Both the position numbers and the translations under genes were made by a program. DNA of 64,000 nt from Deltaproteobacteria bacterium HGW-Deltaproteobacteria-2 (GTDB lineage: Bacteria; Desulfobacterota; Syntrophia; Syntrophales; Smithellaceae): positions 7,193 to 71,192 of the forward strand of contig PHBC01000008.1 of the NCBI GenBank assembly GCA_002840505.1, written 5' to 3'. A model generated the notes under the pieces. That model was not told the origin of the DNA. It did no database searches and saw only the letters and a program-made list of their open reading frames with translations. This document shows, in pieces, positions 35,271-58,232 of this stretch (the first letter of the stretch is position 1; every line of letters begins with the position of its first letter).

Positions 35271-35418
35271 CCTCAAAATATTGAGGCGCCACCGCATATT
35301 GAGGCCGAACAAATCATTTCATACGTCCCTATAATTCCCTGTTATTAATCTAACCACGTATTATTAATAGATGAATAAAATTTCTAATTCACTTTAAGCC
35401 ATTGGCCTACTATTTGCT
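35271..35418 (+). promoter_or_regulatory. sigma54 promoter cassette 1 (two upstream sites, AT-rich element, -24/-12)
   Basis: Upstream sites CCTCAAAATATTGAGG (35271-35286) and CCACCGCATATTGAGG (35289-35304). AT-rich element TTAATCTAACCACGTATTATTAA (35345-35367). Core promoter TTGGCCTACTATTTGCT with GG at 35404-5 and GC at 35416-7. Confidence 0.8.
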
Positions 35419-35485
35419 GTTAATATTCATTTAGTCCTTTTAATGAAATGTCTGAACCAATTAGAATAAAACACAGGAGCAAATC

Positions 35486-35767
35486 ATGGATGAAATATTT
35501 ATAAAAAAAGTGCGGACGGCCGCGTTGGCTGGATGGTGGACTGTTTTAATCGCCTACTGTCTCCTGCTGATTCAATGGGGTGCTTATTTGTTAATTATAC
35601 CCAGGCAGCCGGCAGGAATGCTTTGCTTTTGGGGTGAAGGTGTTACCTGGCAGGAAATCCGCAGTATCTGGTTGTGGGCGATGGTAGCCTATAAGCTTGG
35701 CGTCGTCATGATGATATTTGTCGTCATCTGGCTGACATTTTGGGCAAGACAACTGGCAAAAAAATAG
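35486..35767 (+). CDS. small integral membrane protein (3 TM), unknown function
   Basis: SD AGGAG; hydrophobic helices (WWTVLIAYCLLLIQWGAYLLII, IWLWAMVAYKLGVVMMIFVVIWLTFW). First gene after cassette 1. Confidence 0.55.
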   Translation: MDEIFIKKVRTAALAGWWTVLIAYCLLLIQWGAYLLIIPRQPAGMLCFWGEGVTWQEIRSIWLWAMVAYKLGVVMMIFVVIWLTFWARQLAKK

Positions 35768-35848
35768 AACGGGAAGGTTGAAGAGAAAGGGTGGCCGGAG
35801 CAATTAATTTAAAAAGCATTTCAATACCAACACAAAGAGGGCAATCCA

Positions 35849-37165
35849 ATGAAGGGTAAAGAACTCCGGGTATTAATCGTTGAAGACTCGGAAGATGATG
35901 CGCTGCTTTTAATCCGTGAACTTAAAAAGGGCGGATACAATCCGGTGTATGACCGGGTGGCCAACGCTGTCGCAATGAAAAAAGCCATTCAAGAGAAGAA
36001 ATGGGACATTATTCTTTGCGATTATATAATGCCCGGATTTAATGCTCCTTCAGCCATTCATGTATTGAAGGAAGCAAATGTTGACATTCCTCTCATCGTT
36101 GTATCCGGAACGATCGGTGAAGAAACGGCCATAGAGTGTATGCGTTTCGGCGCCAAAGATTATATCATGAAATCCAATCTGGTCCGTCTTTGCCCGGCCA
36201 TATCCAGAGCACTGGAAGAGGCAGAAATTAAAAATAAGCATAAGCAGGCCCAAGAGTTACTGAACGCTTCGGAAGTCCGGTACAGGCGGCTTTTTGAGTC
36301 AGCAAAAGATGGGATTCTTATCCTTGATTGCGAAACGGGAAAAATTGTTGACGTTAATCCATTTCTGATTGAGCTGCTGGGTTATTCGCGTGAGCAATTC
36401 ATAGAGAAGGCTGTGTGGGAACTGGGGCCATTTAAGGATATTATTCCCAATCGCAACAAATTTCTGGAATTGCAGAGCCAGGAGTATATCCGTTATGATA
36501 ATTTGCCTTTGGAAACCATTGATGGACGGCTTGCCAATGTTGAATTCGTCAGTAATGTCTATGCAGAGGGCAATACCAGGGTAATTCAGTGCAATATTCG
36601 CGATATCACCGAACGTAAAGAAGCGTTGAAAGCGCTGCGGGAAAGCGAAAAACGATACAGGGAACTGAGCATAATCGATGACCTCACGCAGCTTTATAAT
36701 TCCAGGCATTTTTATGCTCAGCTCAAAATAGAAACAGAGCGGTCGAACCGCTATAAACATCCTCTGACCATTCTACTTATGGATATCGACAAATTCAAGG
36801 AGTTCAACGACTCATACGGCCATATTGAAGGGGACAGTGTGTTGTCTCAAATAGGCAAACTGTTGAAAAAATGCCTGCGCGAGAGCGATTCTGCCTATCG
36901 TTATGGCGGCGAGGAATTTACAATCATATTGCCGATGACCACAATCGAAGATGGAACGATAATGGCGGAAAGAATACAAACGGAATTAATGGAAAAGGCC
37001 TTTTCCCCGATATCGGGTCAAAATGTTTATATAACAGCGAGTATCGGTTTTGCTCAGTACATGCCGAATGAAGAGATGAAAGCGTTCGTTCAGCGCGTAG
37101 ACCAACTCATGTACCAGGCTAAGAAGAAAAGGAACCACAGTATTTATTCTGAATTACAGAGTTAA
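35849..37165 (+). CDS. response regulator receiver-PAS-GGDEF diguanylate cyclase
   Basis: REC domain (VLIVEDSEDD...ILCDYIMPG), a PAS domain, and a GGDEF domain with the intact RYGGEEF active-site motif. Confidence 0.85.
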   Translation: MKGKELRVLIVEDSEDDALLLIRELKKGGYNPVYDRVANAVAMKKAIQEKKWDIILCDYIMPGFNAPSAIHVLKEANVDIPLIVVSGTIGEETAIECMRFGAKDYIMKSNLVRLCPAISRALEEAEIKNKHKQAQELLNASEVRYRRLFESAKDGILILDCETGKIVDVNPFLIELLGYSREQFIEKAVWELGPFKDIIPNRNKFLELQSQEYIRYDNLPLETIDGRLANVEFVSNVYAEGNTRVIQCNIRDITERKEALKALRESEKRYRELSIIDDLTQLYNSRHFYAQLKIETERSNRYKHPLTILLMDIDKFKEFNDSYGHIEGDSVLSQIGKLLKKCLRESDSAYRYGGEEFTIILPMTTIEDGTIMAERIQTELMEKAFSPISGQNVYITASIGFAQYMPNEEMKAFVQRVDQLMYQAKKKRNHSIYSELQS

Positions 37166-37182: not shown

Positions 37183-37331
37183 CCTCAACATGCTGAGGCT
37201 CCACCAAATAATGAGGCCAAACGTATAAATCCATCCTTTTAAACCGGTCTCTTTTGTTAATCTAACCATCCGTTATTAAATAAATAATTAAATATTTTTA
37301 TTTTTCTTCTGCTATTGGCAAGCCATTTGCA
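37183..37331 (+). promoter_or_regulatory. sigma54 promoter cassette 2
   Basis: CCTCAACATGCTGAGG (37183-37198), CCACCAAATAATGAGG (37201-37216), TTAATCTAACCATCCGTTATTAA (37257-37279), and TTGGCAAGCCATTTGCA with GG at 37317-8 and GC at 37329-30. Confidence 0.85.
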
Positions 37332-37362: not shown

Positions 37363-37953
37363 ATGATGAAAACATACTGCAATGCACTATTCATGATCGT
37401 TTTATTGTTGATGTTTACCGGATGCGCCGCTCTTTTGCCGCACAGCACGATAACGACTGAATCACCCTGGCAGGATTTCAATGGTGCCAAATTGACCTAT
37501 GATAAAATTAATCCCGGAGTAACCACGGTGAGTGATCTGAAAAGATTAGGGTTCGATCCTTATTTAACACCAAATATCAAGATAATGAATGTCACGGAGG
37601 TTATCAATCTATTCTTGCCCAATCCCTCTATTAAAAAGGAAGATTTGGATATTGGCATTCAAAAATGCATCGAGAGTAAGGACCGGTGTACGGCCTACCA
37701 GATTTCGCCCAGCAAATTATATGTAAATCGAATAGGTAATTTCTGGTTGGACCTGTTTTCATTCAAGCGCCATACCGTAAATAGCGGATGGGAATTCAAG
37801 GGATTAATCACAATTGTTGATAATGTTGTCACTTACAGAGACCCGCCGGGAGGACGACCCTTAATTAACATGGATCAAATTGACGTTAAGCCTTTAGGGC
37901 CTGCTCAAGAAGCCGGAAGTGCGATCATTGCTACGGTTCCGCTTATCTGGTAG
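37363..37953 (+). CDS. lipoprotein, unknown function
   Basis: Signal peptide with lipobox LMFTGC; SD GGGAGGTGG. Confidence 0.6.
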   Translation: MMKTYCNALFMIVLLLMFTGCAALLPHSTITTESPWQDFNGAKLTYDKINPGVTTVSDLKRLGFDPYLTPNIKIMNVTEVINLFLPNPSIKKEDLDIGIQKCIESKDRCTAYQISPSKLYVNRIGNFWLDLFSFKRHTVNSGWEFKGLITIVDNVVTYRDPPGGRPLINMDQIDVKPLGPAQEAGSAIIATVPLIW

Positions 37954-38041: not shown

Positions 38042-38190
38042 CCTCAGCATACTGAGGTTCTACCAAATACTGAGGCCAGACGAATCATCTCATGCTTTCA
38101 CGCTCTTTTCCTTTGTTAATCTATCCACCTGTTATTAAGTGATTAATTCAAAATTATGATTCTTCTTGAGCCATTGGCAGGCTATTTGCT
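38042..38190 (+). promoter_or_regulatory. sigma54 promoter cassette 3
   Basis: CCTCAGCATACTGAGG (38042-38057), CTACCAAATACTGAGG (38060-38075), TTAATCTATCCACCTGTTATTAA (38116-38138), and TTGGCAGGCTATTTGCT with GG at 38176-7 and GC at 38188-9. Confidence 0.85.
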
Positions 38191-38373
38191 CATACATCTA
38201 TAAAGATACTTTTTAATCTTAACCTTCAAGCGAGTTCCTGTTTGTTTTTTAGGAGAGGATTATAAATTACCGAAGGCTACTAAAAGTTTTTTAGGAGCAA
38301 AATAATGAAGGAGATAAGTAACAGAAGATTAATAATCAGCAATTGCAATTTAATAACTTTGAAAGGAGATAAT

Positions 38374-38877
38374 ATGAAAAGATTTAAGACCCAGCAGGCT
38401 TTTTTTACGTTAATTATGTTAGCAGTGAGTATTTTTTTATTTACAGGATGTGGAAGTAGTGATGAGGCCGCGCTGATAACAGCCCCATTCGATTCGGTCC
38501 TCCCCGGAACATGTGGTGAAACGGGACCCAAGGTGGATTCGGCAGATCCCGCTACTGGTGCCGTGGATGTGGCGATCGATACATGGATTACGGCTACCTT
38601 CAGTGAGGCGATGGATCCGACGACGATCGAAGTGACCACTCCCGGAAGCCCAGAGGTGGAGACGTTTACCCTCTATGATAATGACTACCCCGGAATCCCC
38701 ATAGAAGGTACCGTCGAAATGGATGTCACAAACACAATAGCGACCTTTAAGCCAACAGCAGTCCTCGCGAAAGGTACCACGTTTACGGTGACTATTACCA
38801 AGTATGCCAAGAGATTATCAGATAACACCCCACTTGGCTGTAACTATCGATGGGAATTTCAGACGACGGATATTTAA
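38374..38877 (+). CDS. lipoprotein with SbsA/Big_5-type Ig-like domain
   Basis: The ATG at 38374 after GAAAGGAGA gives MKRFKTQQAFFTLIMLAVSIFLFTGC (lipobox). The Ig-like block is PKVDSADPATGAVDVAIDTWITATFSEAMDPTTI. The track start at 38305 is an in-frame upstream ATG. Confidence 0.7.
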   Translation: MKRFKTQQAFFTLIMLAVSIFLFTGCGSSDEAALITAPFDSVLPGTCGETGPKVDSADPATGAVDVAIDTWITATFSEAMDPTTIEVTTPGSPEVETFTLYDNDYPGIPIEGTVEMDVTNTIATFKPTAVLAKGTTFTVTITKYAKRLSDNTPLGCNYRWEFQTTDI

Positions 38878-39069: not shown

Positions 39070-39753
39070 ATGAAAAAAATATTTATGTTAGTTGTCGTCA
39101 TGATGTTGATCACTTTCACCTCAGCCGTGCAGGCAGAAGTCAGGGCCGGTGGGTTGCCCGCTCTAGTTGTGGATGATAGGATTAGCGATGGTAACGCCCC
39201 AGCTACGGCACCAGCCAGAGCCGGTGCTTTACCCGCTATTACTGTGGATGAAAGGATCCCTAATTGTACCTGTAAAACAGATCCCTCCTACTGTGCTAAA
39301 CCAGTAGTCGCATCTGCACCAGTTCCGGAACCAGTTCCAGAACCAGCTCCGGTTGTGGTTCCTCCTCCGGCACCAGCTCCCAAGCCAGTTATTATTGAAA
39401 AAGGCAGGCAGACACTTAATGTCGAATTCGATTTTGATAAATCAACCATTAAGAAAGGTTACTATCAAGACATCGATAATCTGGCTGGAGTGATGAAACA
39501 ATATCCCGATCTTAACGTTGCAATCGAAGGACACACCGACAGCATTGGTTCTGATGCTTACAATGAAAAACTTTCCCAGGAAAGAGCTGACGCTGTAAAG
39601 AATTACATGGTTGAGAAAAACGGTATTGATGCAAATCGTATCAAGGCGATTGGTTTTGGTGAGAAACAACCTGTTGCTTCAAACGATACCAGTGAAGGTC
39701 GTGCTCAGAATCGTCGCGTAGAAGCGGCTGTCGATTATAGAATCGAGAAGTAA
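39070..39753 (+). CDS. OmpA-family (OmpA_C peptidoglycan-binding) protein with repeats and a Pro-rich linker
   Basis: Signal peptide; duplicated segment EVRAGGLPALVVDDRI / ARAGALPAITVDERI; a PxP-rich linker; OmpA_C motifs FDFDKSTI...IEGHTDSIGSDAYNEKLSQERADAV...NRRVE. Confidence 0.8.
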   Translation: MKKIFMLVVVMMLITFTSAVQAEVRAGGLPALVVDDRISDGNAPATAPARAGALPAITVDERIPNCTCKTDPSYCAKPVVASAPVPEPVPEPAPVVVPPPAPAPKPVIIEKGRQTLNVEFDFDKSTIKKGYYQDIDNLAGVMKQYPDLNVAIEGHTDSIGSDAYNEKLSQERADAVKNYMVEKNGIDANRIKAIGFGEKQPVASNDTSEGRAQNRRVEAAVDYRIEK

Positions 39754-39784: not shown

Positions 39785-39820
39785 AAGAACCCCGTGGCTT
39801 ACTGCGGGGTTCTTCTTTTT
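39785..39820 (+). terminator. intrinsic terminator
   Basis: AAGAACCCCG-10 nt loop-CGGGGTTCTT followed by CTTTTT. Confidence 0.7.
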
Positions 39821-39973: not shown

Positions 39974-40122
39974 CCTCAATATACTGAGGTCCCACCAAAT
40001 ACTGAGGGCAAACAAATCATATCATGCTTTTCCACTGTTCTGTCCCACTGATCTAAGCAACTGGTATTATATGATTAATCAATAATTATTATTCATTCGC
40101 ATGTATTGGCAGACTATTTGCT
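39974..40122 (+). promoter_or_regulatory. sigma54 promoter cassette 4
   Basis: CCTCAATATACTGAGG (39974-39989), CCACCAAATACTGAGG (39992-40007), a more diverged AT-rich element (about 40048-40090), and TTGGCAGACTATTTGCT with GG at 40108-9 and GC at 40120-1. Confidence 0.8.
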
Positions 40123-40304
40123 TTTCACCACATTATACTTTTAATTTTACCCCAAGCGCGAGTTCTTCTTATTTTTTGGGGAAGCAGATTATAACTTAAC
40201 GAAAGATACAAAATTATTTTCAGAGGGAGGAATAATGAAGGAGATAGGTATTCGAAAGCTAACAGAAAGCAATTGTAAAATTAATGACTTTGAAAGGGGG
40301 TTAT

Positions 40305-41945
40305 ATGAAAAGATTTAAAGCTCTGCAAGTTTGTCTTGCCTTTATGATGTTAATCCTGGGTGTTTTAATTACAGGATGCGGAAGTAACGGTCAAACCGGT
40401 CATTGGTTACCAACACCAGGTATTCCGGTAGACACCACCAGACCCAGAGTGTTTTCCACCGTTCCTGCCACGACAGTTCCCGGTCCAACTACTGGCGTGC
40501 CGACCAACACATTAATTACGGCACTTTTTACTGAGGAAATGGACCAGGCATCGATTCAGGCAGCCGGTACTGTCACGGTGACATGTACGCCGTCTTGCGT
40601 GAATGGTGCCACTCTCGCCGGCACTGTAAGCTACGCAGTAGGCAGTAAAACCATGGTCTTCACGCCAACGCCGGTACCAACACTGCTTGAGGCCAGCAAG
40701 ACCTATACTGTCACTATTACCACCGCGGCCACCGACGTGATAGGCAATCAACTTGCGGGCAATCAAGCCGCCTTGCCCGCGGCAAGTGCCTACATATGGA
40801 GCTTTACCACCGCAGACGCTCCCATACCGGCGGCAAATATAACAGTGGCTTCGGTCTTCCCTGTTGATACTGCCCCGTCTGTATGTCCCAGCTCGAGCAT
40901 CAGCGCGACCTTCACCGTGCCTGATCCTTTACTAAAGATTAACCCTCTAACGGTCACTGCGGCAACTTTCATCGTGACGGGACCGGGGGTGAGTGGACCA
41001 GTCGTCGCAGCAGCGGCAATCGATGGCCGGACTGTTGATAGCACAGGTCTCATTGCGACCTTTAAGCCCGCCGCCCCTCTCACTCCGGGTCTTTATACGG
41101 TCACAATTAAAAGCGGGGCCGCCCCTGCCGGGGTTGAAGACACAGCTATTCCTGGCGACCAACTGGCAGCTGACTACACATGGACATTTACCGTAGCTCC
41201 AGCGACAGGGCTTTGTATAGCGACGATACCTCTTGGAGCGACGGTCGAGACGTTCGGAGCTCTTTCCTGCGCCGCGATCAGCGGTAGTACAGTGGGGACC
41301 GGAACCACGGTTAACGGAAATATCGGGACAACACTGACGAGCACTTCTGTAACCAATTGGGTTGGCGGCGGCTCTCCTGCCACACCCGGAATCGTGAACG
41401 GGACGATATTTGCTTCGGACCTTCCGGTTGCCGGCGATACGACATCGGCCACTGCCGTCAACGAAGCGTATACCGCGTTTCTGGCCGCACAAACCGTGGG
41501 AGCATCGGGTACCGTGATACCAACAAGCGATCTTGGCGCAGAAACCGCGTTCGGAGACGGTAACCCCGGGGTCTTCTACGCCGGCGCCTATACGTCCGGG
41601 TCTTCGATTGCGATCAGTACCCCTGTTACACTCGATGCCCAGGGCGACGCTAATGCGGTCTGGATCTTCTATTCACCTAGCAGCACCTTGACCACCACGG
41701 GGCCGCTTGGAAATATTATCCTCCTGAACAATGCCCAGGCGAAAAACGTCTTTTGGGTGGTCGGCAGTTCAGCCACACTTGGAGCACCGCTCTTCAGCGG
41801 AAACGTACTGGCTGCCACAGCAATCTCGGTGACTTCCGCAGGCCCAGGAATCATAGATGGGAGACTGTTGACTTCAGGGCCGACCTGTGCCGCGGTTTCA
41901 TTCTCGGGCGCCGGAGCCGGTACAGTTAACGTACCTGGTCTGTAA
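40305..41945 (+). CDS. lipoprotein: tandem SbsA/Big_5-type Ig-like domains plus a C-terminal DUF3494 (ice-binding-like) beta-solenoid domain
   Basis: The ATG at 40305 gives MKRFKALQVCLAFMMLILGVLITGC (lipobox). Ig-like block DTTRPRVFSTVPA...LITALFTEEMDQASI. The C-terminal pattern LGATVETFGALS....VNGNIG...AYTAF...PGVFYAGAYT....LDAQGDANAVWIF...NAQAKNVFWVVGSSATLG...GNVLA...GRLL matches the DUF3494 pattern as I recall it. Confidence 0.7.
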   Translation: MKRFKALQVCLAFMMLILGVLITGCGSNGQTGHWLPTPGIPVDTTRPRVFSTVPATTVPGPTTGVPTNTLITALFTEEMDQASIQAAGTVTVTCTPSCVNGATLAGTVSYAVGSKTMVFTPTPVPTLLEASKTYTVTITTAATDVIGNQLAGNQAALPAASAYIWSFTTADAPIPAANITVASVFPVDTAPSVCPSSSISATFTVPDPLLKINPLTVTAATFIVTGPGVSGPVVAAAAIDGRTVDSTGLIATFKPAAPLTPGLYTVTIKSGAAPAGVEDTAIPGDQLAADYTWTFTVAPATGLCIATIPLGATVETFGALSCAAISGSTVGTGTTVNGNIGTTLTSTSVTNWVGGGSPATPGIVNGTIFASDLPVAGDTTSATAVNEAYTAFLAAQTVGASGTVIPTSDLGAETAFGDGNPGVFYAGAYTSGSSIAISTPVTLDAQGDANAVWIFYSPSSTLTTTGPLGNIILLNNAQAKNVFWVVGSSATLGAPLFSGNVLAATAISVTSAGPGIIDGRLLTSGPTCAAVSFSGAGAGTVNVPGL

Positions 41946-42126
41946 GGCATGAGGTATTCGATATGAAAGCAGGCAAAAGGGAAGACAGGTTGTTTATCAT
42001 AATTCATCCGCTCTCCTTTTGCCTTGCTGCAACGCTTCGTTCTTTGAGCACTAAGATGTCTCCTGCGGCTTATTTGAAGAGCCGCAGGGGCAGCAGCTAA
42101 ACGCGACAATATAAAGGAGGACTACA

Positions 42127-43212
42127 ATGAAATCAATGTATCGTACAGCAATGATAATAGCTGTCTTTGTTTTTTTATTACCCTTATCTGTTCGCTCCGA
42201 GATAAGGGCCGGAAGTTTTGAAGTGAATCCGTTCATCGGATACAACTTCTTCCAAAACAGTCAGAATCTGAAAGACGCGGTAATATATGGTGGTCGGCTT
42301 GGCTACAATTTCACGAGGTATTTTGGTGTTGAAGTCGGTGGGGAATTTATACGAACTAATCTTGATGATAAGGCAAAATTGGATAACACGGAAGGACAGT
42401 TCGGATATCCCATGGATAAAGTGGATTTTTATAAGTATAATATTAATGCCGTCCTTCACTTAATTCCCGATGGCAGATTCAATCCCTTTATCGTTGTCGG
42501 ATTCGGAGGAGCCCACTATAGTCCATCGATATCAAATGGCGGAGACATGTCTGCCTTTAATGTTGGTTTAGGAGCGAAAATCTGGCTGACGGAAAATATC
42601 GCTCTTAGATTCGATGTTCAGGATTATATGGTTACCGAAATATTTCAGGAGACCTACCATAATATTGGAGTTACCGGTGGAATAGTTTTTGCGTTCGGCG
42701 GCGCGGCAAAGCCTGAGCCTGTGGCGAAGGCTGAACCGGTACCCGAGCCCATACCTGAACCTCCTCCTCCCGTAGTCATACAAAAGGTTGAACCTCCTCC
42801 TCCTCCTCCTCCTCCTCCTCCTCCTCCTCCTCCTCCTCCCAAGCCAGTCATTATTGAAAAAGGCAGACAGACGCTGGATGTAAAATTTAATTTTGATAAA
42901 TCAACCATTAAGGAGGGTTATTACAACGACATCGATAATCTGTCTGGAGTGATGAAAGATTATCCCGATCTTAAAGTCGTGATCGAAGGACATACGGATA
43001 GTGTCGGTACAAAGGCTTATAATAAAAACCTTTCCCAGGAACGAGCTGACGCTGTCAAGAATTACATGGTTGAGAAAAACGGTATTGATTCAAATCGTAT
43101 AGCAACAGAAGGTTTCGGAGAGGAAAAACCTATTGCTGATAATGCCACTGCAGAAGGTCGTGCTCAGAACCGTCGAGTGGAAGCAGCTGTTGATTATACA
43201 ATCAAGAAGTAA
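42127..43212 (+). CDS. OmpA-like outer-membrane protein: N-terminal beta-barrel, poly-proline linker, OmpA_C domain
   Basis: Signal peptide; beta-barrel-type alternating pattern (GYNFF...GGRLGYNFT..FGVEVGGEF); a run of consecutive prolines; an OmpA_C domain near-identical to that of 39070..39753. Confidence 0.85.
   Translation: MKSMYRTAMIIAVFVFLLPLSVRSEIRAGSFEVNPFIGYNFFQNSQNLKDAVIYGGRLGYNFTRYFGVEVGGEFIRTNLDDKAKLDNTEGQFGYPMDKVDFYKYNINAVLHLIPDGRFNPFIVVGFGGAHYSPSISNGGDMSAFNVGLGAKIWLTENIALRFDVQDYMVTEIFQETYHNIGVTGGIVFAFGGAAKPEPVAKAEPVPEPIPEPPPPVVIQKVEPPPPPPPPPPPPPPPPKPVIIEKGRQTLDVKFNFDKSTIKEGYYNDIDNLSGVMKDYPDLKVVIEGHTDSVGTKAYNKNLSQERADAVKNYMVEKNGIDSNRIATEGFGEEKPIADNATAEGRAQNRRVEAAVDYTIKK
42793..42837 (+). 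repeat. perfect (CCT)15 trinucleotide microsatellite encoding the poly-Pro linker
   Basis: Counted directly: 15 uninterrupted CCT units from 42793, followed by CCC. Confidence 0.9.
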
Positions 43213-43240
43213 ATATTCTTTTTCTAATAACTTAACAATA

Positions 43241-43275
43241 CTGAAGAACCCCAGGCTTACTGCGGGGTTCTTCAG
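43241..43275 (+). terminator. terminator-like hairpin, paralogous to the one at 39785
   Basis: CTGAAGAACCCC-11 nt loop-GGGGTTCTTCAG, with the loop core GGCTTACTGC shared with the 39785 hairpin. No clear U-tract. Confidence 0.45.
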
Positions 43276-43305
43276 TGAGAAATAAAAAGAGAGTATTACG
43301 CGTGA

Positions 43306-43383: not shown

Positions 43384-43524
43384 TAGGAGTAGCGGGTTAA
43401 TGTTCCAAAAAGATGTTTTATAAGAAAGGAGTCGCGCTGGTGGACGGCATTGTGCTGCTGGTTGCGAGAAGCAGAAAAGACTTAAAGATAGACAAAACTT
43501 CTAATGTGTAAAGGAGACAAAAAA

Positions 43525-50218: not shown

Positions 50219-50403
50219 GACGATAAGAGCCAATGATGGCATCATGACAAATTTGTTCCATGTTGTCACGGCATTGACGGAACAATTTAAAAAGAAGATG
50301 CACAAGTAGTATGTAGTGCAGAGCTGTTTTTACAAACAGAGATTCTTCGGGAACTTTTTGTTAATCGACCCGGTAATTGTCGTCTGATTCAAAATGAAAG
50401 ATC

Positions 50404-50569: not shown

Positions 50570-51187
50570 ATGAAGGTTCTAATCGTTTATTACTCAATGT
50601 ATGGTCACATATACAAAATGGCCCAAGCAGTTGCTGAGGGTGTAAAACAGGTCAAAGGCGCCGAAGTAAAAATGTATCGTGTGCCGGAAACTTTGCCCGA
50701 TGACGTTTTGAAGAAAATGGGCGCATCAGACTTTCAAAAGAAAACTTCTCAGATCAATGTTTGCACCGCGGATGATTTGGTTTCTGCCGATGCAATTATA
50801 TTTGGCACACCTACACGTTTTGGAAATATGTGCGGTCAGATGCGCCAATTTCTCGATTCTACCGGAGGGATTTGGGCCAAGGGACTTCTTGTCGGTAAAG
50901 TAGGAAGTGTCTTTGCCTGTTCAGCAACACAGCACGGCGGCCAGGAATCAACCATCCTTAGTTTCCATATTACATTACTTCATCAGGGAATGATCATCGT
51001 AGGGTTACCTTATGCTTTTGAAGGGCAAATGCGCATTGATGAAATCACCGGTTCATCTCCTTATGGCGCTTCAACCATTGCCGGAGGCAAAGGCGAAAGA
51101 ATGCCCAGCGACAATGAACTACAGGCGGCAAGATACCAGGGCAAACATGTTGCTCAAATTGCCGCAAAAGTGGCATGCAAAGATTAA
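50570..51187 (+). CDS. wrbA: NAD(P)H:quinone oxidoreductase, WrbA-type flavodoxin-like protein
   Basis: [24 protein letters not shown]...GTPTRFGNM...; about 200 aa. Confidence 0.8.
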
Positions 51188-51239
51188 TTGCAATTCCCTA
51201 TAGAAGAGATCAACAACAAACAAAAAAGGAGAAAAAGTT

Positions 51240-51572
51240 ATGTCACATACACAATACGAAGGTTGTATCGAAGTCTGTAACGAATGTGTAACATCGTGTG
51301 AACATTGCGCTTCATCTTGTCTGCATGAACAGGACATAAAAATGATGGTGCGATGCATCGAACTTGATCGGGATTGCGCCGATATTTGCAGTTTGGCCGC
51401 TCAACTCATGTCACGCGGCTCATCGTATTCAGCGAAAATCTGCGCGTTATGCGCTGAAATTTGTCAGGCGTGCGGTGATGAGTGCGCCAAACACAAAATG
51501 GAGCATTGTCAGCAATGCGCCAAAGCCTGCCATAAATGTGTCGAAGAATGCTGGAAAATGGCAAAGAAATAA
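51240..51572 (+). CDS. Cys-rich four-helix-bundle protein (DUF326 family, copper-binding type)
   Basis: Repeated CxxC(x)3C patterns: CNECVTSCEHCASSC, CADICSLAA, CAEICQACGDECAKH, CQQCAKACHKCVEEC. Confidence 0.7.
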   Translation: MSHTQYEGCIEVCNECVTSCEHCASSCLHEQDIKMMVRCIELDRDCADICSLAAQLMSRGSSYSAKICALCAEICQACGDECAKHKMEHCQQCAKACHKCVEECWKMAKK

Positions 51573-51626
51573 TAACGACCATCCAATCCTTGCTGTGGTT
51601 GGCATTACAAACAAAGGGGATTAATT

Positions 51627-53741
51627 ATGAGCAAACAAAAAAAGATGAGTTATTTTGGAAAACGCAAACAAGAGAAGGGTGCGGTTCTAAGCGAAGACGC
51701 CCAAGCAGCTAACGGCGACGAGCTGCACCAGATCGCGGGCGGAGAGCACCCGGCGCTGACCACAAACCAAGGTGTTTCGCTTTCCGACAATCAAAACTCA
51801 CTTCGGGCCAATCCGCACGGTCCTACGCTTCTTGAGGATTTTGTCCTTCGTGAAAAAATCACACATTTCGATCACGAGCGAATCCCTGAGCGTATTGTTC
51901 ACGCACGAGCCACGGGTGTGCATGGATTCTTCGAGCTGACCACCTCGTTGAAGCAATACACCACGGCAAGGATACTCACCGACGTAGGTGAGAAGACACC
52001 CTTGTTTACCCGCATATCGACTGTAGCGGGCGGTGCAGGTTCGGTAGACACCCCGCGTGACGTACGCGGGTTTGCCATTAAGTTTTATACCAAGGAAGGC
52101 AACTGGGACATCGTCGGCAACAACGTCCCGGTTTTCTTCATCCAGGATGCCATTAAATTCCCCGATCTCATCCATGCCGTAAAGATGGAACCCGACCGCG
52201 GCTTTCCGCAATCGGCGACCGCACACGATACCTTCTGGGATTTTATTTCGCTCACGCCTGAGTCCATGCATATGGTGATGTGGATCATGTCTGATCGCAC
52301 CATACCGCGTTCACTACGAATGATTGAAGGATTTGGCGTGCATAGTTTCCTGCTGATTAACGAGACAGGCGTTTCAACATTCGTTAAATTCCACTGGCGT
52401 CCCAAGCTCGGCTTGCAGTCCACTATTTGGGATGAGACTGTCAAGATTTGCGGCGCTGATCAGGACTTCCATCGCCGCGATATGTTCGACGCCATTGCCG
52501 CCGGTCATTTCCCCGAGTGGGAATTCGCGGTTCAGCTTTTCACGCAAGAGGAAGCAGATAAATTTCCCTTCGATCATCTGGATGCGACAAAGTTAATACC
52601 CGAAGAACTGGTGCCCTTAAAAGTGATCGGCCGCATGGTGTTGGATCGCTGGCCGGACAATTTCTTTGCTGAAACGGAGCAGGTCGCATTCTGCCCAGCC
52701 AACATCATTCCGGGCATCGATTTCTCGAATGATCCCCTTTTGCAAGGCCGTTTATTTTCTTATGTCGACACGCAGCTTTCGCGTCTGGGTTCGGTCAATT
52801 TTCACCAGATCCCGATCAATGCTCCCAAGTGTCCGTTTGGAAACCAACAACGCGACGGACACATGCAGATGGCGCAACCGTCGGGCCGTGTTGCGTATGA
52901 GCCCAACACTTTGTCGGAAAACTCACCTCGCGAAACGTCGACGAAGGGATTTCATAGCGCTGCGGTAACTGAAACCGGTGAGAAAGGCCGCATCCGCGCC
53001 GAGAGTTTTGCCGACCACTACAGCCAGGCGCGGCAGTTCTATCTCAGCCAGACATCCTATGAGCAGGCGCACATCGCCTCGGCATTGGTGTTTGAGCTTT
53101 CCAAGGTCGAACATTTGCACATTCGTAAGGCGATAGTCGGTCACCTGCGGCATATCGATGAAGACTTCGCCCGCCGTGTCGCCGCAGGCCTTGCCTTCGA
53201 CAAAATGCCCGACGCCCCGCATGCCGCGGCACCCGTTAAGAAAATGAAGCCTTCACCTGCATTACAGATTATCGGTAAAATGAAAGATACACTCATGGGA
53301 CGCGCAGTGGGCATCCTCATTGCGGATGGGTCAGAAGGCGCAACTATCAAGAAGATTAAAAAGGCCGCAACCGATGCGGGGGCTGCCGTAAAGATTGTCG
53401 CGCCCAAAGTGGGCGGCGCCAAGCTTGCCGACGGCTCATTGCTTCCGGCTGACGGTCAACTGGCCGGCACACCTTCCGTGCTATTCGACGCAGTTGCCGT
53501 CATCCTCTCCGACGAGGGCGCAAAGGCACTGTCGAGGGAAAGCGCCGCAATCGATTTCGTGCGCGATGCTTTCGGTCATCTCAAGGCTATCGCTGCCGAC
53601 AAAGGTGGTTTTGCGCTTTTGAAAACAGCAAATATCGGAAAAGACGCAGGCGTCGTGGAGGCAAGCGACAAAGACGCCTTTATTACCGCGGCAAAGACGC
53701 GCCAATGGGACCGGGAAAAGTCCGTGCGAACTTTGGCATAA
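51627..53741 (+). CDS. katE: large-subunit monofunctional catalase (HPII type)
   Basis: [27 protein letters not shown]-like [48 protein letters not shown]. The 704 aa length includes a C-terminal flavodoxin/DJ-1-like extension. Confidence 0.9.
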
Positions 53742-53856
53742 CCGCAAGTTCAATGCTAAGCTGGAGCGTTGGACAGAAAAAGAAGTGAATGAAACAAGTC
53801 ATGTTATGATTTTACACAGGACTTTAATGGCAGGGTCTTAGAAAAAGGCGTTAGCT

Positions 53857-54540
53857 ATGAATATTCTTATTGTTCTTACTTCTCATGATCAACTCGGTAA
53901 TACCGGAAAGAAAACCGGTTTCTGGCTGGAAGAGTTCGCCGCGCCTTATTACGTGCTAAAGGATGCCGGAGCTTCAATCACACTGGCCTCTCCAAAGGGT
54001 GGCCAGCCGCCGCTAGATCCGAAAAGCGATCTCCACGAAAATCTGACCGAGTTAACCAAGCGCTTCCGTGCTGACAAGGCTGCACAGGCAGAACTTGCCA
54101 ATACGAAAAAGCTCTCCGACGTCTCCGCGGACGATTTCGACGGAGTCTTCTACCCCGGTGGACATGGCCCGATGTGGGATATGCCTGATAACAAGACATC
54201 CATTGTGCTGATCGAAGCCTTCGTGAAGGCCGGAAAGCCAGTCGGTGCGGTGTGTCATGCGCCGGCCGCATTGGTTAATGTGCGCGGAAAAAATGGCGAG
54301 TATCTGGTTAAAGGTAAGCGCGTGACCGGGTTCACGAATGCAGAAGAAGAAGCCGCGGGCTTGAGCAAAGTCGTACCTTTCCTGTTGGAAGACCGTCTAA
54401 AGGAACGGGGTGGCTTATACAGCAAGGGTGTCGATTGGACTCCCTACGTTCAAGTGGATGGCAACCTTGTGACCGGTCAGAATCCGGCTTCCTCGGGGCT
54501 CGCAGCGGAAGAGTTACTAAAGCTGCTTCGTTTAGTTTGA
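53857..54540 (+). CDS. DJ-1/PfpI-family (class I glutamine amidotransferase-like) protein
   Basis: ILIVLTSHDQLG...GFWLEEFAAPYYVLKDAG....ASPKGG; nucleophile elbow AVCHAPAAL. Confidence 0.7.
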   Translation: MNILIVLTSHDQLGNTGKKTGFWLEEFAAPYYVLKDAGASITLASPKGGQPPLDPKSDLHENLTELTKRFRADKAAQAELANTKKLSDVSADDFDGVFYPGGHGPMWDMPDNKTSIVLIEAFVKAGKPVGAVCHAPAALVNVRGKNGEYLVKGKRVTGFTNAEEEAAGLSKVVPFLLEDRLKERGGLYSKGVDWTPYVQVDGNLVTGQNPASSGLAAEELLKLLRLV

Positions 54541-54546
54541 ACTGAA

Positions 54547-55779
54547 GTGAATGAGATGAAAAATCATAGAATGATTATGTTCTGGACACTGCTGGCGATG
54601 GCACTAATGGGCTTTGCATGTGCCGCAGTTCTCACTACTAAAGACACTGCAGAACCTTTCGGCCCCGGTATGCAAGCAAATGTACATGGCACATTGAAGA
54701 CCGGTAATGAGCTTGCACAAAACAATATATCCGATGTGAGGTACGACGTGCAATCTTCTGATAACAAATTAGAGGGCATAACCAAATATGAAAATGTCTC
54801 TGTTGATGAAGAACGCCTGATCAAAGATATGGGAGTTATCTTACAAGAAAAGATGTCCAGGGATTATCCCACAGGCCTTACCAAACGTGACGCCCACCCT
54901 AAAACGCTTGCCTGCCTGCAAGCTGAATTCATTGTGGAACCGAATATACCGTCAGAGCTGAAGAAGGGAATATTTAAGTTTCCCCAAACCTATCCCGCCT
55001 GGATTCGAATTTCGAGCGCAAGCGGTAAGATCCAGTCGGACAAAGCCAAAGACCTGCGTGGTTTTGCCATAAAAATCATTGGTGTCAAAGGGGAACGGTT
55101 TCAGACTCAAAACAATGAGAAAGAAACGCAGGATTTTGTATTACTTAGCTATCCGAGCATGCCCTTAGGAACGGTCAAACTGTTCCATGACGCGGTGTAC
55201 TACAGTATCAAATATTCGCCCCTTGTCTTTCTTGCTCGCCTGGTTGTTACCGGAGATTTCCATATAATCAATGAACTACGTAAGGCGAGGCAAAACCAAA
55301 CCTCTCCGTTGGATATCCGCTATTGGAGTACAACTCCTTATTTATACGGTGCGGATCGTATCGTAAAATACTCACTCGTTCCCACTTCGCGCATAAAAAG
55401 CTCCCTGCCGCAAAAACTGAGCGATCATTATCTCACTGAAAATATGGAAAAACACCTGATTGCGCATGAGGCAAGCTTTGATTTTATGATTCAAATTCAA
55501 AAAGGCACCGGCCGGATGCCGGTTGAGGATGCCGGTGTGGAATGGAGCGAAAAGGAATCCCCCTTTATTAAAGTGGCCACCCTTCGTATTCCTCCCCAAG
55601 CGTTCCGCACTAAGGAACGCGAGGATCTGGCTGAAGATTTGTCGTTCTCTCCGGCGCATTCCTTGATTGATCATCGACCGATCGGTGGCATCAACCGGGC
55701 AAGGGTAGAAATTTACCGGTACTTATCCGAATTCCGCCATAAGCAAAACAACAAGCAGTGGACAGAACCTCGCAAGTAG
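54547..55779 (+). CDS. membrane-anchored catalase-related haem protein
   Basis: N-terminal TM helix. RDAHPKTLACLQAEF...WIRISSASG...DLRGFAIKI mirrors the catalase core motifs HAKG.../RFS.../D.RGFA.K. The start is ambiguous (GTG 54547 or ATG 54556). Confidence 0.55.
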   Translation: MNEMKNHRMIMFWTLLAMALMGFACAAVLTTKDTAEPFGPGMQANVHGTLKTGNELAQNNISDVRYDVQSSDNKLEGITKYENVSVDEERLIKDMGVILQEKMSRDYPTGLTKRDAHPKTLACLQAEFIVEPNIPSELKKGIFKFPQTYPAWIRISSASGKIQSDKAKDLRGFAIKIIGVKGERFQTQNNEKETQDFVLLSYPSMPLGTVKLFHDAVYYSIKYSPLVFLARLVVTGDFHIINELRKARQNQTSPLDIRYWSTTPYLYGADRIVKYSLVPTSRIKSSLPQKLSDHYLTENMEKHLIAHEASFDFMIQIQKGTGRMPVEDAGVEWSEKESPFIKVATLRIPPQAFRTKEREDLAEDLSFSPAHSLIDHRPIGGINRARVEIYRYLSEFRHKQNNKQWTEPRK

Positions 55780-55831
55780 GTGGATAGATGTGACATGAAA
55801 GATTGACGGGTACAAGGAGCATGTTAAGTTA

Positions 55832-57211
55832 TTGCTGAATAATAATTCCCTGTGGTCATTTTTTTCTTCTGTGAAACTGACAATTACGCTTCTCGTGTTA
55901 ATTGTCCTTGTCTTCATTGCCGCCACCTTCTTGCCGACGTATGACGTTGTTCAAACATTTGCCAGACGGCTTTCGCCGGGAGCAGTTCAAATTATTCTCT
56001 TCTTTCGTTTCTTCAATCTTTATCATTCTTTGCTATTCTATTTCCTGATGACACTTCTATCGCTTAACTTGATAATCTGTTCGATAAATCGTTTCCCCGG
56101 ATTATGGAAGCAATACAAAGTTCCGCCTTTACCGGAACCGGCCGGTATCTTCGAGAATCTTCCACGGGTCCAGATTATTACGGAAGATAAAGCAATCAGC
56201 AAAATAAAACTGATCGTAAAATCAAGCCTGAAAAAACAATATCGATCCGGCAAAGAAGCTGAGACGGAAAAAGGATCCATTTTTTATGCTGAAAGGGGGC
56301 GTTTCTCTCTCTTTGGTGTTTACATTATTCACTTGAGCATTTTAGTGATGATGGCGGGAGCGATTATCGGCTCCATCTTTGGCATGGAAGCCGATATCAA
56401 TATTAAAGAAGGTGAAACGATCAATCTTGCCAGTCTGACGAAAGGCAATGGAATACACGATCTGGGTTTTTCAGTCCGCTGCGATAAATTTATCGTCGAA
56501 TTTTACGAAGACGGCACTCCGAAAACATATCGCTCGGATTTAAGCTTCATCAAAAACGGAAACGTTGAAAAACAGGGATCACTGCTGGTCAATCATCCCT
56601 TAACCTTCGACAAGTTCCGTTTTTACCAGTCCAGCTACGGTGTCGCGCCGGAAAGCAAGGCAATACTCACATACACGGTTGCCGGTAAGAAGAGCGGCTC
56701 CATGGCGCTCGTCGCTGGAGATACTTTTGATTTGCCGGAGGGCAAAGCCAGGGGCTTTGTCATGCGTGTTGAAGAAAACATGATGCAGTGGGGGCAAGCC
56801 GTAAAGTTGAGAATTATTTCCCCGAAAAAGGATATCCAGTTCTGGGTTTTTTACCAACTTGACAAACTTTTAGCCTTGAAACCAAATCTCTTGACGGAAG
56901 CGCCGATGTTCAATCCCGGTCTTTTTGCACCCTTTGTTTTTTCCATTGACCGGGTCGAACAGACTTATTACACCGGTTTGCACATCGTCCGTGATCCCGG
57001 TGTTCCCCTTGTTGTGCTGGGAGGAGTGCTCATGATCACAGGTTTAATAATCGTCTTTTTTATGTCGTACCAACAGTTTTGGGTGCTGATAGAGCAAGAA
57101 GGAGCGCAAATCAGCATCAGCATTTCCGGCAGGAGCAACCGGAATAACCAGCAGATACAAAACAAAATAGATTGTTTGCGCGGGCAAATCAGCGAGGAGT
57201 TGGAAGCATGA
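55832..57211 (+). CDS. resB: cytochrome c biogenesis protein ResB/Ccs1 (system II)
   Basis: N-terminal pattern FFSSVKLTITLLVLIVLVFIAATF, a large soluble loop, a C-terminal TM, and translational coupling to ccsA. Confidence 0.75.
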   Translation: MLNNNSLWSFFSSVKLTITLLVLIVLVFIAATFLPTYDVVQTFARRLSPGAVQIILFFRFFNLYHSLLFYFLMTLLSLNLIICSINRFPGLWKQYKVPPLPEPAGIFENLPRVQIITEDKAISKIKLIVKSSLKKQYRSGKEAETEKGSIFYAERGRFSLFGVYIIHLSILVMMAGAIIGSIFGMEADINIKEGETINLASLTKGNGIHDLGFSVRCDKFIVEFYEDGTPKTYRSDLSFIKNGNVEKQGSLLVNHPLTFDKFRFYQSSYGVAPESKAILTYTVAGKKSGSMALVAGDTFDLPEGKARGFVMRVEENMMQWGQAVKLRIISPKKDIQFWVFYQLDKLLALKPNLLTEAPMFNPGLFAPFVFSIDRVEQTYYTGLHIVRDPGVPLVVLGGVLMITGLIIVFFMSYQQFWVLIEQEGAQISISISGRSNRNNQQIQNKIDCLRGQISEELEA

Positions 57212-58056
57212 ACCACACGATGATTTTAAGCTGGGTGACTTTTATCTATTTTGCTTCCTTCGTCTTCTATCTGCTTCGGTTGATTTCCGGAAAAGAATTC
57301 TGGGGACGCGCCGCCTCTTTTTTAGTCTGTGCGGGATTTGCCGCGCAAACGATTGGTCTGCTTCTCAGATGGAGAACCTCTTACAGCCTGGGCATTGGAC
57401 ATGTGCCTCTGGCCAACCTTTACGAATCCATGGTCTTTTTTTCCTGGGCCATCATTCTGATTTATCTGATTATGGAATGGCAAATTAAAAGCAGGATTAT
57501 CGGCGTCTTTGTCGTACCGATGGCATTTCTGGCTCTGGCCTATGCCTCCATCGCGCCGGGCATCAATAGTCGTATCGAGCCCCTCATTCCGGCTTTGCAA
57601 AGCAATTGGCTGACCACCCATGTCGTAACCTGTTTTATGGGATATGCCGCATTTGCCATTGCCTTTGGCTGCGGTTTAATCTATCTGCTGAAAAGCATGG
57701 GGAAAGGTAATGAAGAAAAACCAGCAGGATTTTTAGAAAAACTACCCGCCTTGGCAACGCTGGATGGATTAATTTATCAGAGCATCGTTCTCGGTTTTGT
57801 TTTTCTCACCATCGGAATCATGACGGGGTCCATCTGGGCGCATTACGCCTGGGGTTCTTACTGGAGCTGGGACCCCAAAGAGACATGGTCGCTGATCACC
57901 TGGATTATCTACGCGATTATGCTGCATTCGCGGCATGTCCGGGGCTGGCGGGGAAAGCGCATGGCAATCCTTGCCCTCATAGGGTTTGCCTGTGTTCTGT
58001 TCACCTATCTTGGCGTGAATTATCTTCCCGGTTTGCACAGTTATCTCCGGGCATAA
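57208..58056 (+). CDS. ccsA: cytochrome c assembly protein CcsA/ResC
   Basis: Trp-rich haem-handling motif WGSYWSWDPKETWSLITW; polytopic membrane protein. The ATG at 57208 overlaps the resB stop (ATGA). Confidence 0.85.
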   Translation: MNHTMILSWVTFIYFASFVFYLLRLISGKEFWGRAASFLVCAGFAAQTIGLLLRWRTSYSLGIGHVPLANLYESMVFFSWAIILIYLIMEWQIKSRIIGVFVVPMAFLALAYASIAPGINSRIEPLIPALQSNWLTTHVVTCFMGYAAFAIAFGCGLIYLLKSMGKGNEEKPAGFLEKLPALATLDGLIYQSIVLGFVFLTIGIMTGSIWAHYAWGSYWSWDPKETWSLITWIIYAIMLHSRHVRGWRGKRMAILALIGFACVLFTYLGVNYLPGLHSYLRA

Positions 58057-58083
58057 AACCAATGTTGCCCTTTCACTAGTATC

Positions 58084-58232
58084 CCTCAACATGCTGAGGC
58101 TCCGCCAAATACTGAGGCCAAATGAATCATTCATGCTTGGTGGGCTGTTCCCTTCTGTTAATCTAACCAACTGTTATTAAAGCATGAAACAGAACTTATA
58201 ATTCTCTTCGGGGTGTTGGCAGGCTACTTGCT
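58084..58232 (+). promoter_or_regulatory. sigma54 promoter cassette 6
   Basis: CCTCAACATGCTGAGG (58084-58099), CCGCCAAATACTGAGG (58102-58117), TTAATCTAACCAACTGTTATTAA (58158-58180), and TTGGCAGGCTACTTGCT with GG at 58218-9 and GC at 58230-1. Confidence 0.85.

Follow-up and report, generated by a model that had tools for sequence, protein, structure and literature searches.

Classical sigma-54 regulatory regions that combine tandem activator sites with a bending site include glnAp2 with NtrC, nifH with NifA, and Pu with XylR and integration host factor (IHF), and general stress regulons are governed by sigma-S in Escherichia coli, sigma-B in Bacillus and EcfG in Alphaproteobacteria. Among described stress activators, PexR of Myxococcus xanthus is a GAF-AAA+-helix-turn-helix (HTH) enhancer-binding protein (EBP) that activates the sigma-54 katB and ahpC promoters (PMC12754779), and among Kai systems, KaiBC hourglass timers of the kaiC2 subgroup have been described in Rhodobacter sphaeroides (PMC10076222) and Rhodopseudomonas palustris (PMC4794148). 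Here we analyse a 64-kb stretch of Deltaproteobacteria bacterium HGW-Deltaproteobacteria-2 (contig PHBC01000008.1; hereafter the window, within which all coordinates are positions), where six copies of a cassette of about 148 bp join a tandem palindromic site to a sigma-54 promoter and where the genes for two paralogous EBPs (EBP1 and EBP2) follow kaiC and two kaiB genes. Each cassette is probably a complete sigma-54 enhancer-promoter module driven by the adjacent EBPs. A wider proposal, which we hold tentatively and at close to even weight, is that a Syntrophales-type KaiC/KaiB1/KaiB2 hourglass may be wired directly to transcription, a helix and PAS input module normally carried by a histidine kinase being fused here to a sigma-54 activator that fires 148-bp cassettes before at least ten operons.

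Compared with NtrC-, NifA- and XylR-type regions, the cis-acting layout is recognizable: GG at -24 and GC at -12, dyad-symmetric tandem sites 100-150 bp upstream, an AT-rich element between the two, and candidate activators built as AAA+ proteins with a GAFTGA motif and a C-terminal Fis-type HTH. Unlike classical sigma-54 regions, however, the whole 148-bp module, spacer included, is about 70% identical and constant in length to within about 2 bp across many promoters and genomes; the AT-rich element misfits the E. coli consensus for IHF, which serves at Pu with XylR, and the EBPs fall below the cutoffs of named NCBIfam families. The closest described analogue is PexR, likewise a stress-defence EBP from a former deltaproteobacterial lineage that recognizes tandem 5-N6-5 palindromes (CACCG-N6-CGGTG; PMC12754779). 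The half-sites here are instead CCTCA and TGAGG, the sensor is a PAS rather than a metal-binding GAF domain, the putative regulon covers broad envelope and general-stress functions rather than two peroxide genes, and the activator gene sits in a kaiC-kaiB-kaiB operon; with respect to a PexR-type peroxide regulator as such, only the tandem 5-N6-5 format is shared.

The Kai genes resemble the kaiC2 timers in the coiled-coil extension and Ser-Ser pair of KaiC, in the absence of kaiA, in a KaiB closest to that of R. sphaeroides and in a protein with an N-terminal PAS sensor encoded directly downstream. They differ in having two conserved KaiB paralogs, in that a sigma-54 activator takes the place of a histidine kinase as the sensor protein encoded next, in their non-phototrophic anaerobic hosts, and in the family of cis-elements that marks a putative output regulon. 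In gene content the set recalls the sigma-S, sigma-B and EcfG regulons (CsbD/YjbJ, YtxH, BON/OsmY, Usp, HPII catalase, WrbA, DJ-1/HchA, cardiolipin-synthase-like PLD proteins and small DUF3309 and DUF5670 membrane proteins), whereas its control would run through sigma-54 and an ATP-dependent activator in place of a sigma-70-family factor with an anti-sigma factor or partner switching. The cis-logic is thus familiar; the putative fusion of a Kai and an EBP pathway, the stereotyped cassette family and its spread by copying together with a gene stub are new.

The cassettes in the window and in other genomes

The inverted repeat CCTCA-N6-TGAGG occurs exactly six times in the window, always on the plus strand (starts 35271, 37183, 38042, 39974, 48913 and 58084), whereas dinucleotide shuffles average 0.04 copies and reach 1 at most. 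Each copy opens a cassette that consists of a 34-bp tandem site (CCTCA-N6-TGAGG plus CCACC-N6-TGAGG), a conserved spacer, an AT-rich element and a near-consensus sigma-54 -24/-12 promoter. E values below are from a profile hidden Markov model (HMM).

Cassette 1, 35271-35417, + strand: site 35271-35304, AT-rich element about 35345-35366, GG 35404, GC 35416; E 6e-33; begins 60 bp past the EBP2 stop codon, predicted transcription start about 35429
Cassette 2, 37183-37330, + strand: site 37183-37216, GG 37317, GC 37329; E 2.5e-39
Cassette 3, 38042-38189, + strand: site 38042-38075, GG 38176, GC 38188; E 1.5e-39
Cassette 4, 39974-40121, + strand: site 39974-40007, GG 40108, GC 40120; E 7.6e-38; a strong terminator-like hairpin lies ahead of it, at 39785-39814
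Cassette 5, 48913-49057, + strand: site 48913-48946, GG 49044, GC 49056; E 2e-36
Cassette 6, 58084-58231, + strand: site 58084-58117, GG 58218, GC 58230; E 1.2e-42

A second TGAGG lies 18 bp past the first in all six copies; the left half of site 2 reads CCACC, CCACC, CTACC, CCACC, CCGCC and CCGCC in cassettes 1-6 (that is, CYRCC), and its N6 is AAATAM in five of them. TGGCA-N6-TTGC is found at 37316, 38175, 40107, 49043 and 58217, cassette 1 departing from it with TGGCC in the string TTGGCCTACTATTTGC. GG and GC are 12 nt apart throughout, and the distance from cassette start to GG is 133, 134, 134, 134, 131 and 134 bp. Measured from the -24 GG, the two tandem sites have their centres about 108 and 126 bp upstream, and the ATCTA core of the AT-rich element lies 55-57 bp upstream, this element being well preserved in cassettes 1, 2 and 6, changed at one position in cassette 3 and more diverged in cassettes 4 and 5. 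Pairwise identity among the window cassettes is 68-76%, and all six point toward a downstream gene on their own strand.

A preliminary description of this DNA had reported six plus-strand cassettes with these starts, motifs and spacings, and it proves exact to the base: the succession of CCTCA-N6-TGAGG and CYRCC-N6-TGAGG, the 18-bp step between TGAGG half-sites, the AAATAM in five of six, the 12-nt GG-GC interval and the six distances to GG were all reproduced. Its view of the cassettes as sigma-54 promoters also appears sound, the -24 and -12 elements matching the consensus (YTGGCACG-N4-TTGCW) with the canonical spacing of 12 nt between GG and GC. The promoter string that it gave, TTGGCARRCTATTTGCW, stands as a consensus but is not invariant, cassettes 1, 2, 5 and 6 each being off by 1-3 bases. 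Trained on cassettes of other genomes only, the profile HMM recovers the six sites at E values of 1e-33 to 1e-42 and detects no further degenerate cassette in the window above noise. A relaxed -24/-12 regular expression adds a single match in the window, a weaker minus-strand string with TGGTA that falls within a 4951-amino-acid open reading frame (ORF), and sigma-70-like sites in the window are not enriched (22 observed, 22 expected).

That the palindrome might act as RNA, forming a hairpin that terminates or attenuates transcription of the upstream gene, strikes us as extremely improbable. It does lie 18-220 bp past an upstream stop codon in all six cassettes, and the reverse strand of one copy was listed as terminator-like in a pattern scan. 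Its stems are nevertheless only 5-6 bp long and fold no better than shuffles (-8 to -9 kcal/mol, z -0.6 to -1.3), no T-run follows on the plus strand, the imperfect site 2 cannot pair with itself yet is equally conserved, and Rfam has no match in the window. On the shuffle-like folding and the Rfam result we rejected terminator and structured-RNA readings of the palindrome. Scans for transfer RNA (tRNA) and transfer-messenger RNA (tmRNA) and with Rfam detected no intact RNA gene, nor any RNA family overlapping the cassettes.

In a scan of one genome per GTDB species, the exact pattern CCTCA-N6-TGAGG-N13-TGAGG-N{85,115}-TGGC-N8-TGC has at least 134 copies in at least 120 genome stretches, where about 2 chance matches are estimated from the pattern's complexity. 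Among the matches listed, many of them from uncultured syntrophs of peat and sediment, nearly all hosts are metagenome-assembled genomes (MAGs) that bear the label Syntrophaceae, Smithellaceae, Smithella, Syntrophus or 'Deltaproteobacteria', with Desulfatiglandales, Desulfatibacillum, Syntrophorhabdus and Desulfobulbaceae as a minority. By its nearest relatives, the window itself probably comes from a Smithella-like organism. A profile scan of those loci yielded 29 additional copies with 1-2 deviations at positions that the pattern forces. Although the pattern let the gap vary by 30 bp, 133 of the 134 matches listed measure 145-150 bp overall. Conservation is concentrated in motif islands at fixed spacing, and at positions left free by the pattern it comprises a C before the palindrome, CC.CC, AAATA and TTCCACCAAATAT in site 2, CCAAACGAATCATTTCAT 3' of site 2, CTAA and GTTATTAA in the AT-rich element, and the bases flanking -24 and -12. 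The promoter consensus of the family, TTGGCAGGCTATTTGCT, is one specified position off the canonical one, and TT steps in the spacer recur at about 9.5 bp, a weak hint that comes with no null model.

Random pairs of cassettes, from any genome or gene, have a mean identity of 69%. Pairs within the window are about as similar, which indicates that the copies are old and that the whole 148 bp is under constraint; recent duplication and concerted evolution were ruled out on the same ground, within-window identities being equal to those between genomes. Cassette 5 has counterparts of 85-89% identity before CsbD genes in L044 and L113 (L-numbers label loci in other genomes and metagenome contigs), which points to conservation of an orthologous promoter. 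In five loci, a single 34-bp site block is flanked by two divergent arms, each with spacer, AT-rich element and -24/-12 promoter:

L072, 7214-7482: divergent pair with a common 34-bp site
L100, 5561-5830: divergent pair with a common 34-bp site
L026, 1403-1672: divergent pair with a common 34-bp site
L063, 5058-5328: divergent pair with a common 34-bp site
L108, 528-785: divergent pair with a common 34-bp site

One site serving promoters on both sides would amount to orientation-independent, enhancer-like behaviour.

Activator genes and the putative Kai input

Upstream of cassette 1, the Kai and activator genes run without a change of strand, a fusion of a methylesterase, a methyltransferase and a PAS domain lying between the EBP genes:

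26120-27874, + strand: kaiC (kaiC2 subgroup, KaiA-independent type, C-terminal coiled-coil extension); Pfam KaiC 382 bits in two stretches
27877-28200, + strand: kaiB1; Pfam KaiB; best Protein Data Bank match R. sphaeroides KaiB 8FWJ_M, E 1.5e-30
28271-28615, + strand: kaiB2, second conserved KaiB paralog; Pfam KaiB; 54% identical to KaiB1
28626-30248, + strand: EBP1; N-terminal helix and PAS sensor, coiled-coil linker, sigma-54 AAA+ domain (GAFTGA), HTH_8; Pfam
30282-33035, + strand: CheB methylesterase-CheR methyltransferase-PAS_10 fusion; Pfam
33216-35210, + strand: EBP2; paralogous to EBP1, PAS sensors different, DNA-binding helix shared; Pfam

Both activators carry GETGTGKE and GAFTGA together with PF00158 (233-234 bits) and PF02954, which place them among EBPs. 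They are 81% identical over 383 amino acids of the AAA+ and HTH domains, their sensors being unrelated, and a 23-residue HTH stretch is identical between them and nearly invariant among orthologs, in line with the near-identical HTH domains of the preliminary description. No named EBP equivalog in NCBIfam (FhlA, NifA, NorR, PspF, NtrC and others) reaches its cutoff, the best scores being 385 against 830 for FhlA, 365 against 529 for NifA and 352 against 476 for NorR; EBP1 and EBP2 belong to an unnamed EBP family. The CheB-CheR-PAS_10 arrangement recurs in L047, L059 and L124.

Synteny ties these activators to the cassettes. Among the loci chosen by the cassette pattern, 26 have an EBP ortholog that stops 20-200 bp short of a cassette, usually at about 41 bp from the alignment end, and eight of these show the full order kaiC-kaiB-kaiB-EBP-cassette. 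Metagenome contigs were also searched with EBP1 residues 1-252 (sensor and linker, excluding the AAA+ domain), and in this sensor-selected sample a cassette lies within 300 bp past the EBP 3' end in 11 of the 16 loci with sequence beyond the EBP. Together with the five divergent pairs, these arrangements favour the earlier suggestion that the upstream sites belong to one dedicated EBP, and the link between activator and cassette, as a prediction from gene order, is strongly supported.

It is conceivable, if improbable, that the promoters are sigma-54 promoters as described but that the TGAGG sites are bound by another EBP or a repressor, EBP1 and EBP2 acting elsewhere. Genomes of Desulfobacterota commonly have dozens of EBP genes (for D. 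vulgaris the reported number is 37; PMC4641369), and profile-HMM and regular-expression scans place no cassette upstream of the kaiC operon itself. Such a reading leaves the recurrent succession of EBP stop codon and cassette, in both the pattern-selected and the sensor-selected loci, unaccounted for, and the tandem 5-N6-5 palindrome is the site format of an EBP, PexR (PMC12754779). The HTH helix, moreover, is nearly invariant where the cassette is canonical. In a Kai-linked but divergent EBP lineage (L138, 5784-7784, and L141, 6001-8300) the HTH is altered (NSAAEILGLDRSTLRARMRKLAI) and no canonical cassette is found downstream of the EBPs, just a weak TGGCAC-N5-TTGAA near position 8263 of L141; this single lineage is consistent with co-variation of HTH and site. 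Gene order therefore disfavours a different binding protein and argues for EBP1 and EBP2 as the probable occupants of the sites.

The KaiC protein scores 746 bits against the NCBIfam equivalog NF006799 (cutoff 408), and among solved structures its best match is R. sphaeroides KaiC 8DBA (E 5e-195). This alignment extends to residue 560 of 584 and so takes in the C-terminal coiled-coil extension; in it, ISSLIDTW is paired with LSSLMDGW and the Ser-Ser phosphosites are preserved. With a double KaiC domain, a C-terminal extension of about 50 amino acids, Ser-Ser, an adjacent kaiB and no kaiA, it belongs to the kaiC2 subgroup as defined in PMC10076222. KaiB1 is 83-94% identical across related loci. 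In all 46 metagenome loci whose upstream sequence is long enough to tell, a kaiB gene, usually the kaiB2 paralog, ends within 250 bp 5' of the start of the EBP1-type sensor, and the order kaiC-kaiB-kaiB holds wherever it is visible. Residues 1-215 of EBP1 are 31% identical (E 2e-35) to the N-terminus of the histidine kinase that follows kaiC-kaiB-kaiB in L164, the alignment covering the whole segment. L164 is one of the four most distant loci, in which the helix and PAS module is found on a kinase:

L164, 6001-7347: helix and PAS module on a histidine kinase after kaiB2
L166, 5956-7299: helix and PAS module on a histidine kinase after kaiB2
L168, 2164-3507: helix and PAS module on a histidine kinase after kaiB2
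L170, 6001-8430: helix and PAS module on a histidine kinase after kaiB2

The EBP1 sensor is closer to these Kai-linked kinase sensors than to the sensor of its own paralog EBP2, with which it gives no alignment. This likeness is our main reason to suggest that the module receives a Kai input and that a direct Kai-to-sigma-54 route arose by domain swap, through which KaiBC would control the cassettes. Alternatively, the cassettes and EBPs could operate as proposed while KaiC and KaiB are merely co-located and the EBP PAS domain senses a small molecule or redox state directly. PAS domains commonly bind ligands, and we found no publication connecting Kai proteins with sigma-54 activators or with Syntrophales. 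We regard this as rather unlikely, in view of the kaiB gene that precedes the sensor in every one of the 46 loci and of the kaiC-kaiB-kaiB-sensor order that persists where the output is a histidine kinase, which suggests a functional Kai-sensor unit.

Genes behind the cassettes and around the locus

The genes that follow the six cassettes in the window encode mainly envelope and stress-type proteins:

Cassette 1, + strand: 35486-35767, 93-amino-acid membrane protein; 35849-37165, response regulator-PAS-GGDEF diguanylate cyclase (Pfam); target orthologs follow cassettes in L027 and L097
Cassette 2, + strand: 37363-37953, 196-amino-acid lipoprotein with no family assignment; orthologs in L043 and L063
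Cassette 3, + strand: 38305-38877, Big_5 lipoprotein; 39070-39753, OmpA-family protein
Cassette 4, + strand: 40284-47190, probable operon (Pfam), co-transcription being suggested by common strand and proximity: Big_5 and ice-binding-like lipoprotein, OmpA beta-barrel, 180-amino-acid secreted protein, OmpA-like protein, fatty-acid cis/trans isomerase; gene orthologs adjoin cassettes in L043, L060, L078, L022 and L038
Cassette 5, + strand: 49131-49313, small stress protein of CsbD-like type; start codon TTG, in-frame ATG absent
Cassette 6, + strand: 58304-63532, 73-amino-acid membrane protein, then YtxH, collagen-like, Ysc84, metallophosphoesterase and Usp genes (Pfam); the 73-amino-acid protein, YtxH, Ysc84 and Usp have orthologs close to cassettes of other genomes

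The direct tie is between a cassette and its first gene; for the remaining genes, strand and proximity suggest membership. Three OmpA-family proteins follow cassettes in the window. The CsbD gene is succeeded on the same strand by WrbA-like, DUF326, HPII catalase, DJ-1/PfpI, ResB and CcsA genes (50570-58056), whose membership is uncertain, about 1.2 kb of decayed ORFs separating them from cassette 5. Elsewhere, the Pfam families of 125 first genes after cassettes, among the matches listed, are led by ABM (22), CsbD (6), Big_5 (4) and Ice_binding (4), followed by BON (3), OmpA (3), DUF5670 (3) and DUF3309 (2), with LTXXQ, DUF4398, YGGT, Pirin and glyoxalase also present; genes 2-4 after cassettes, again among the matches listed, include BON (8), OmpA (5), Ysc84 (4), GGDEF (3), PLD-type (3), CTI (2) and YtxH. 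By its family assignments, this content looks typical of general, osmotic and envelope stress regulons.

Four further observations concern this run of genes. The two Big_5 lipoprotein genes behind cassettes 3 and 4 have in common a conserved 5' leader of about 100-170 nt (38200-38304 and 40132-40304), to which Rfam gives no match. Between the CsbD-like and WrbA-like genes, 49376-50300 is decayed coding sequence with an N-terminal fragment of an acyl-CoA dehydrogenase and two rubredoxin-like CxxC fragments. A 410-amino-acid secreted protein of no Pfam or NCBIfam family is encoded at 54547-55779, between the DJ-1/PfpI gene and those for cytochrome c assembly (ResB/CcsA). The run closes with 63580-63882, which encodes an EncB-family ferritin-like encapsulin cargo protein, at 90 bits against an NCBIfam cutoff of 90.

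The commonest first target, and the usual gene after the EBP-proximal cassette, is an ABM-like protein of about 101 amino acids with the ABM fold and a conserved CxxCxxC (for example at L069, 4417-4719, and L015, 182-481, and in 22 other loci). An intact ABM gene starts 12-14 nt past the TGC in 24 of 140 cassettes, its ATG coinciding with the predicted transcription start and preceded by no Shine-Dalgarno sequence, so that the mRNA would be leaderless; in a limited literature search we found no report of a leaderless transcript from a sigma-54 promoter. At 26 of 140 cassettes the ABM gene is truncated, its first 18-55 codons starting in most cases at that same offset and being followed by an unrelated gene. 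Searches with the ABM protein (tblastn) detect two such remnants in the window:

49070-49165, + strand: frameshifted ABM 5' remnant (MMSVII*..KKRMELSQIIASL..) after cassette 5, also present in the orthologous promoters of L044 and L113
58250-58303, + strand: ABM 5' remnant (IFVMRINVLYGKRMELSQ) 3' of cassette 6

Truncated N-termini at a largely constant offset suggest that the regulon grew by copying of the cassette together with a stub of its founder gene. The same observation is what would be expected if the cassettes were a repeated, possibly mobile, non-coding element whose similarity reflects duplication history and serves no regulatory function, and near-identical tandem copies do occur in some genomes (L105, L016). 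We consider this quite improbable. Window copies at 68-76% identity are no more alike than random ones at 69%, which speaks against a recent burst; conservation falls in motif islands at fixed spacing; the cassette 5 promoter stays before orthologous CsbD genes across species; and all six window copies, like most elsewhere, lie upstream of same-strand genes. Nor do the cassettes have the make-up of a mobile repeat of the miniature inverted-repeat transposable element or repetitive extragenic palindromic type: we saw neither terminal inverted repeats nor target duplications nor a transposase, and the sole inverted repeat is the internal 16-bp site. Duplication accounts for how the copies arose, not for why they are maintained.

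Before the kai locus, positions 1-25550 form a prophage-like region with tail, tail-fibre (Mtd_N and Collar, 22710-23774) and endolysin-type (24126-24677) genes. It includes the 4951-amino-acid ORF (7659-22514), which has Eco57I-like, SNF2 and helicase domains. No repeats of the diversity-generating retroelement type were found around the Mtd-like tail-fibre gene. Between this region and kaiC, two fragments at 25700-25900 resemble the 3' ends of tRNA or tmRNA genes (GGGAGTTCGACTCCC and GGGTTCGACTCCCGCCGCCTCCACCA); ARAGORN and Rfam identify no intact tRNA or tmRNA gene there, and the fragments may be remnants of attachment sites.

Proposed mechanism and implications

The comparison shows how the cassettes are built, how far they are conserved, and the order and content of the genes around them; in the scheme that we propose, EBP binding, a bend in the DNA, dependence on sigma-54, the start sites and control by Kai are steps that we infer. 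Sigma-54 RNA polymerase would occupy TTGGCAGGCTATTTGC, with GG at -24 and GC at -12, and dimers of EBP1 and EBP2 would bind the tandem 16-bp sites CCTCA-N6-TGAGG and CCACC-N6-TGAGG, whose centres fall near -150 and -132. A bend would form in the length-fixed spacer, where the AT-rich element lies at about -85 to -60, either intrinsically or through an IHF- or HU-like protein, allowing the AAA+ ring to contact sigma-54 and to spend ATP on promoter opening, so that transcription would start about 12 nt past the C of the -12 element. On the input side, the N-terminal helix and PAS domain of EBP1 may read the state of a KaiA-independent, ATP/ADP-responsive KaiC/KaiB hourglass, an ATP/ADP-driven hourglass having been described in PMC10076222, and EBP2, paired with the CheB-CheR-PAS protein, may add a second signal at the same sites. 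The six window cassettes, like the at least 8-10 per related genome, would then define one envelope and general-stress regulon. Its founder unit would be kaiC-kaiB-kaiB-EBP followed by a cassette and the small ABM-like gene, from which new genes would be recruited by duplication of the cassette with the first 20-37 ABM codons.

Several points weigh against this scheme or narrow it. The entire case is built on sequence comparison, and the window contains no rpoN gene. Conservation at the CCTCA, TGAGG, TGGC and TGC positions is circular, being forced by the scan pattern, a circularity that the HMM and the sensor-selected sample offset. The counts of the family scan (at least 120 stretches, at least 134 matches) and the regulon sizes are lower bounds, and the related genomes are all MAGs, some of them probably mislabelled (for example 'Nitrososphaerota' and 'Bacillota' contigs). 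Five of the 16 sensor-selected loci have no cassette directly after the EBP (L124, L127, L138/L141 and L166): in L124 the CheBR gene comes next, as it does in the window, L127 has just 234 bp left, L166 is a locus of the kinase type, and L138/L141 are the divergent lineage described above. As PAS domains are common, the likeness of the EBP1 sensor to those of Kai-linked kinases suggests an interaction with Kai proteins and falls short of proof. Distal genes such as catalase and WrbA are assigned by strand and proximity, and no orthologs of these distal genes were seen in the stretches of up to 8 kb around other cassettes. Finally, the AT-rich element does occupy the position of a bending-protein site, as first suggested, but the IHF consensus (WATCAANNNNTTR) is rarely matched between sites and promoter, with at most one mismatch in 20 of 140 cassettes at the best single position; that consensus is the E. 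coli one and may not be the specificity of this clade, and either an intrinsic bend or a clade-specific IHF or HU protein at the spacer is possible.

Published roles of KaiBC outside cyanobacteria are loose links to stress resistance (Legionella, Pseudomonas) and an effect on fitness under light-dark cycles (PMC4794148), and the work usually assumes a histidine-kinase output, with target genes undefined. If the proposed wiring is true, the cassette family would give a non-cyanobacterial Kai system, for the first time, a defined regulon as its transcriptional output, and it would put a general stress response under sigma-54 rather than under an RpoS-, SigB- or EcfG-type sigma factor. As the probable site and the promoter are both recognizable, the regulon can be read from any genome and tested by reporters. 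The family also exemplifies regulon expansion in which a whole enhancer-promoter module is copied with a founder-gene stub, and the length-fixed 148-bp module may offer a natural, portable and tightly gated promoter part. As for the organisms themselves, energy-limited syntrophs from peat and sediment, the data point to a general stress programme that is based on sigma-54.

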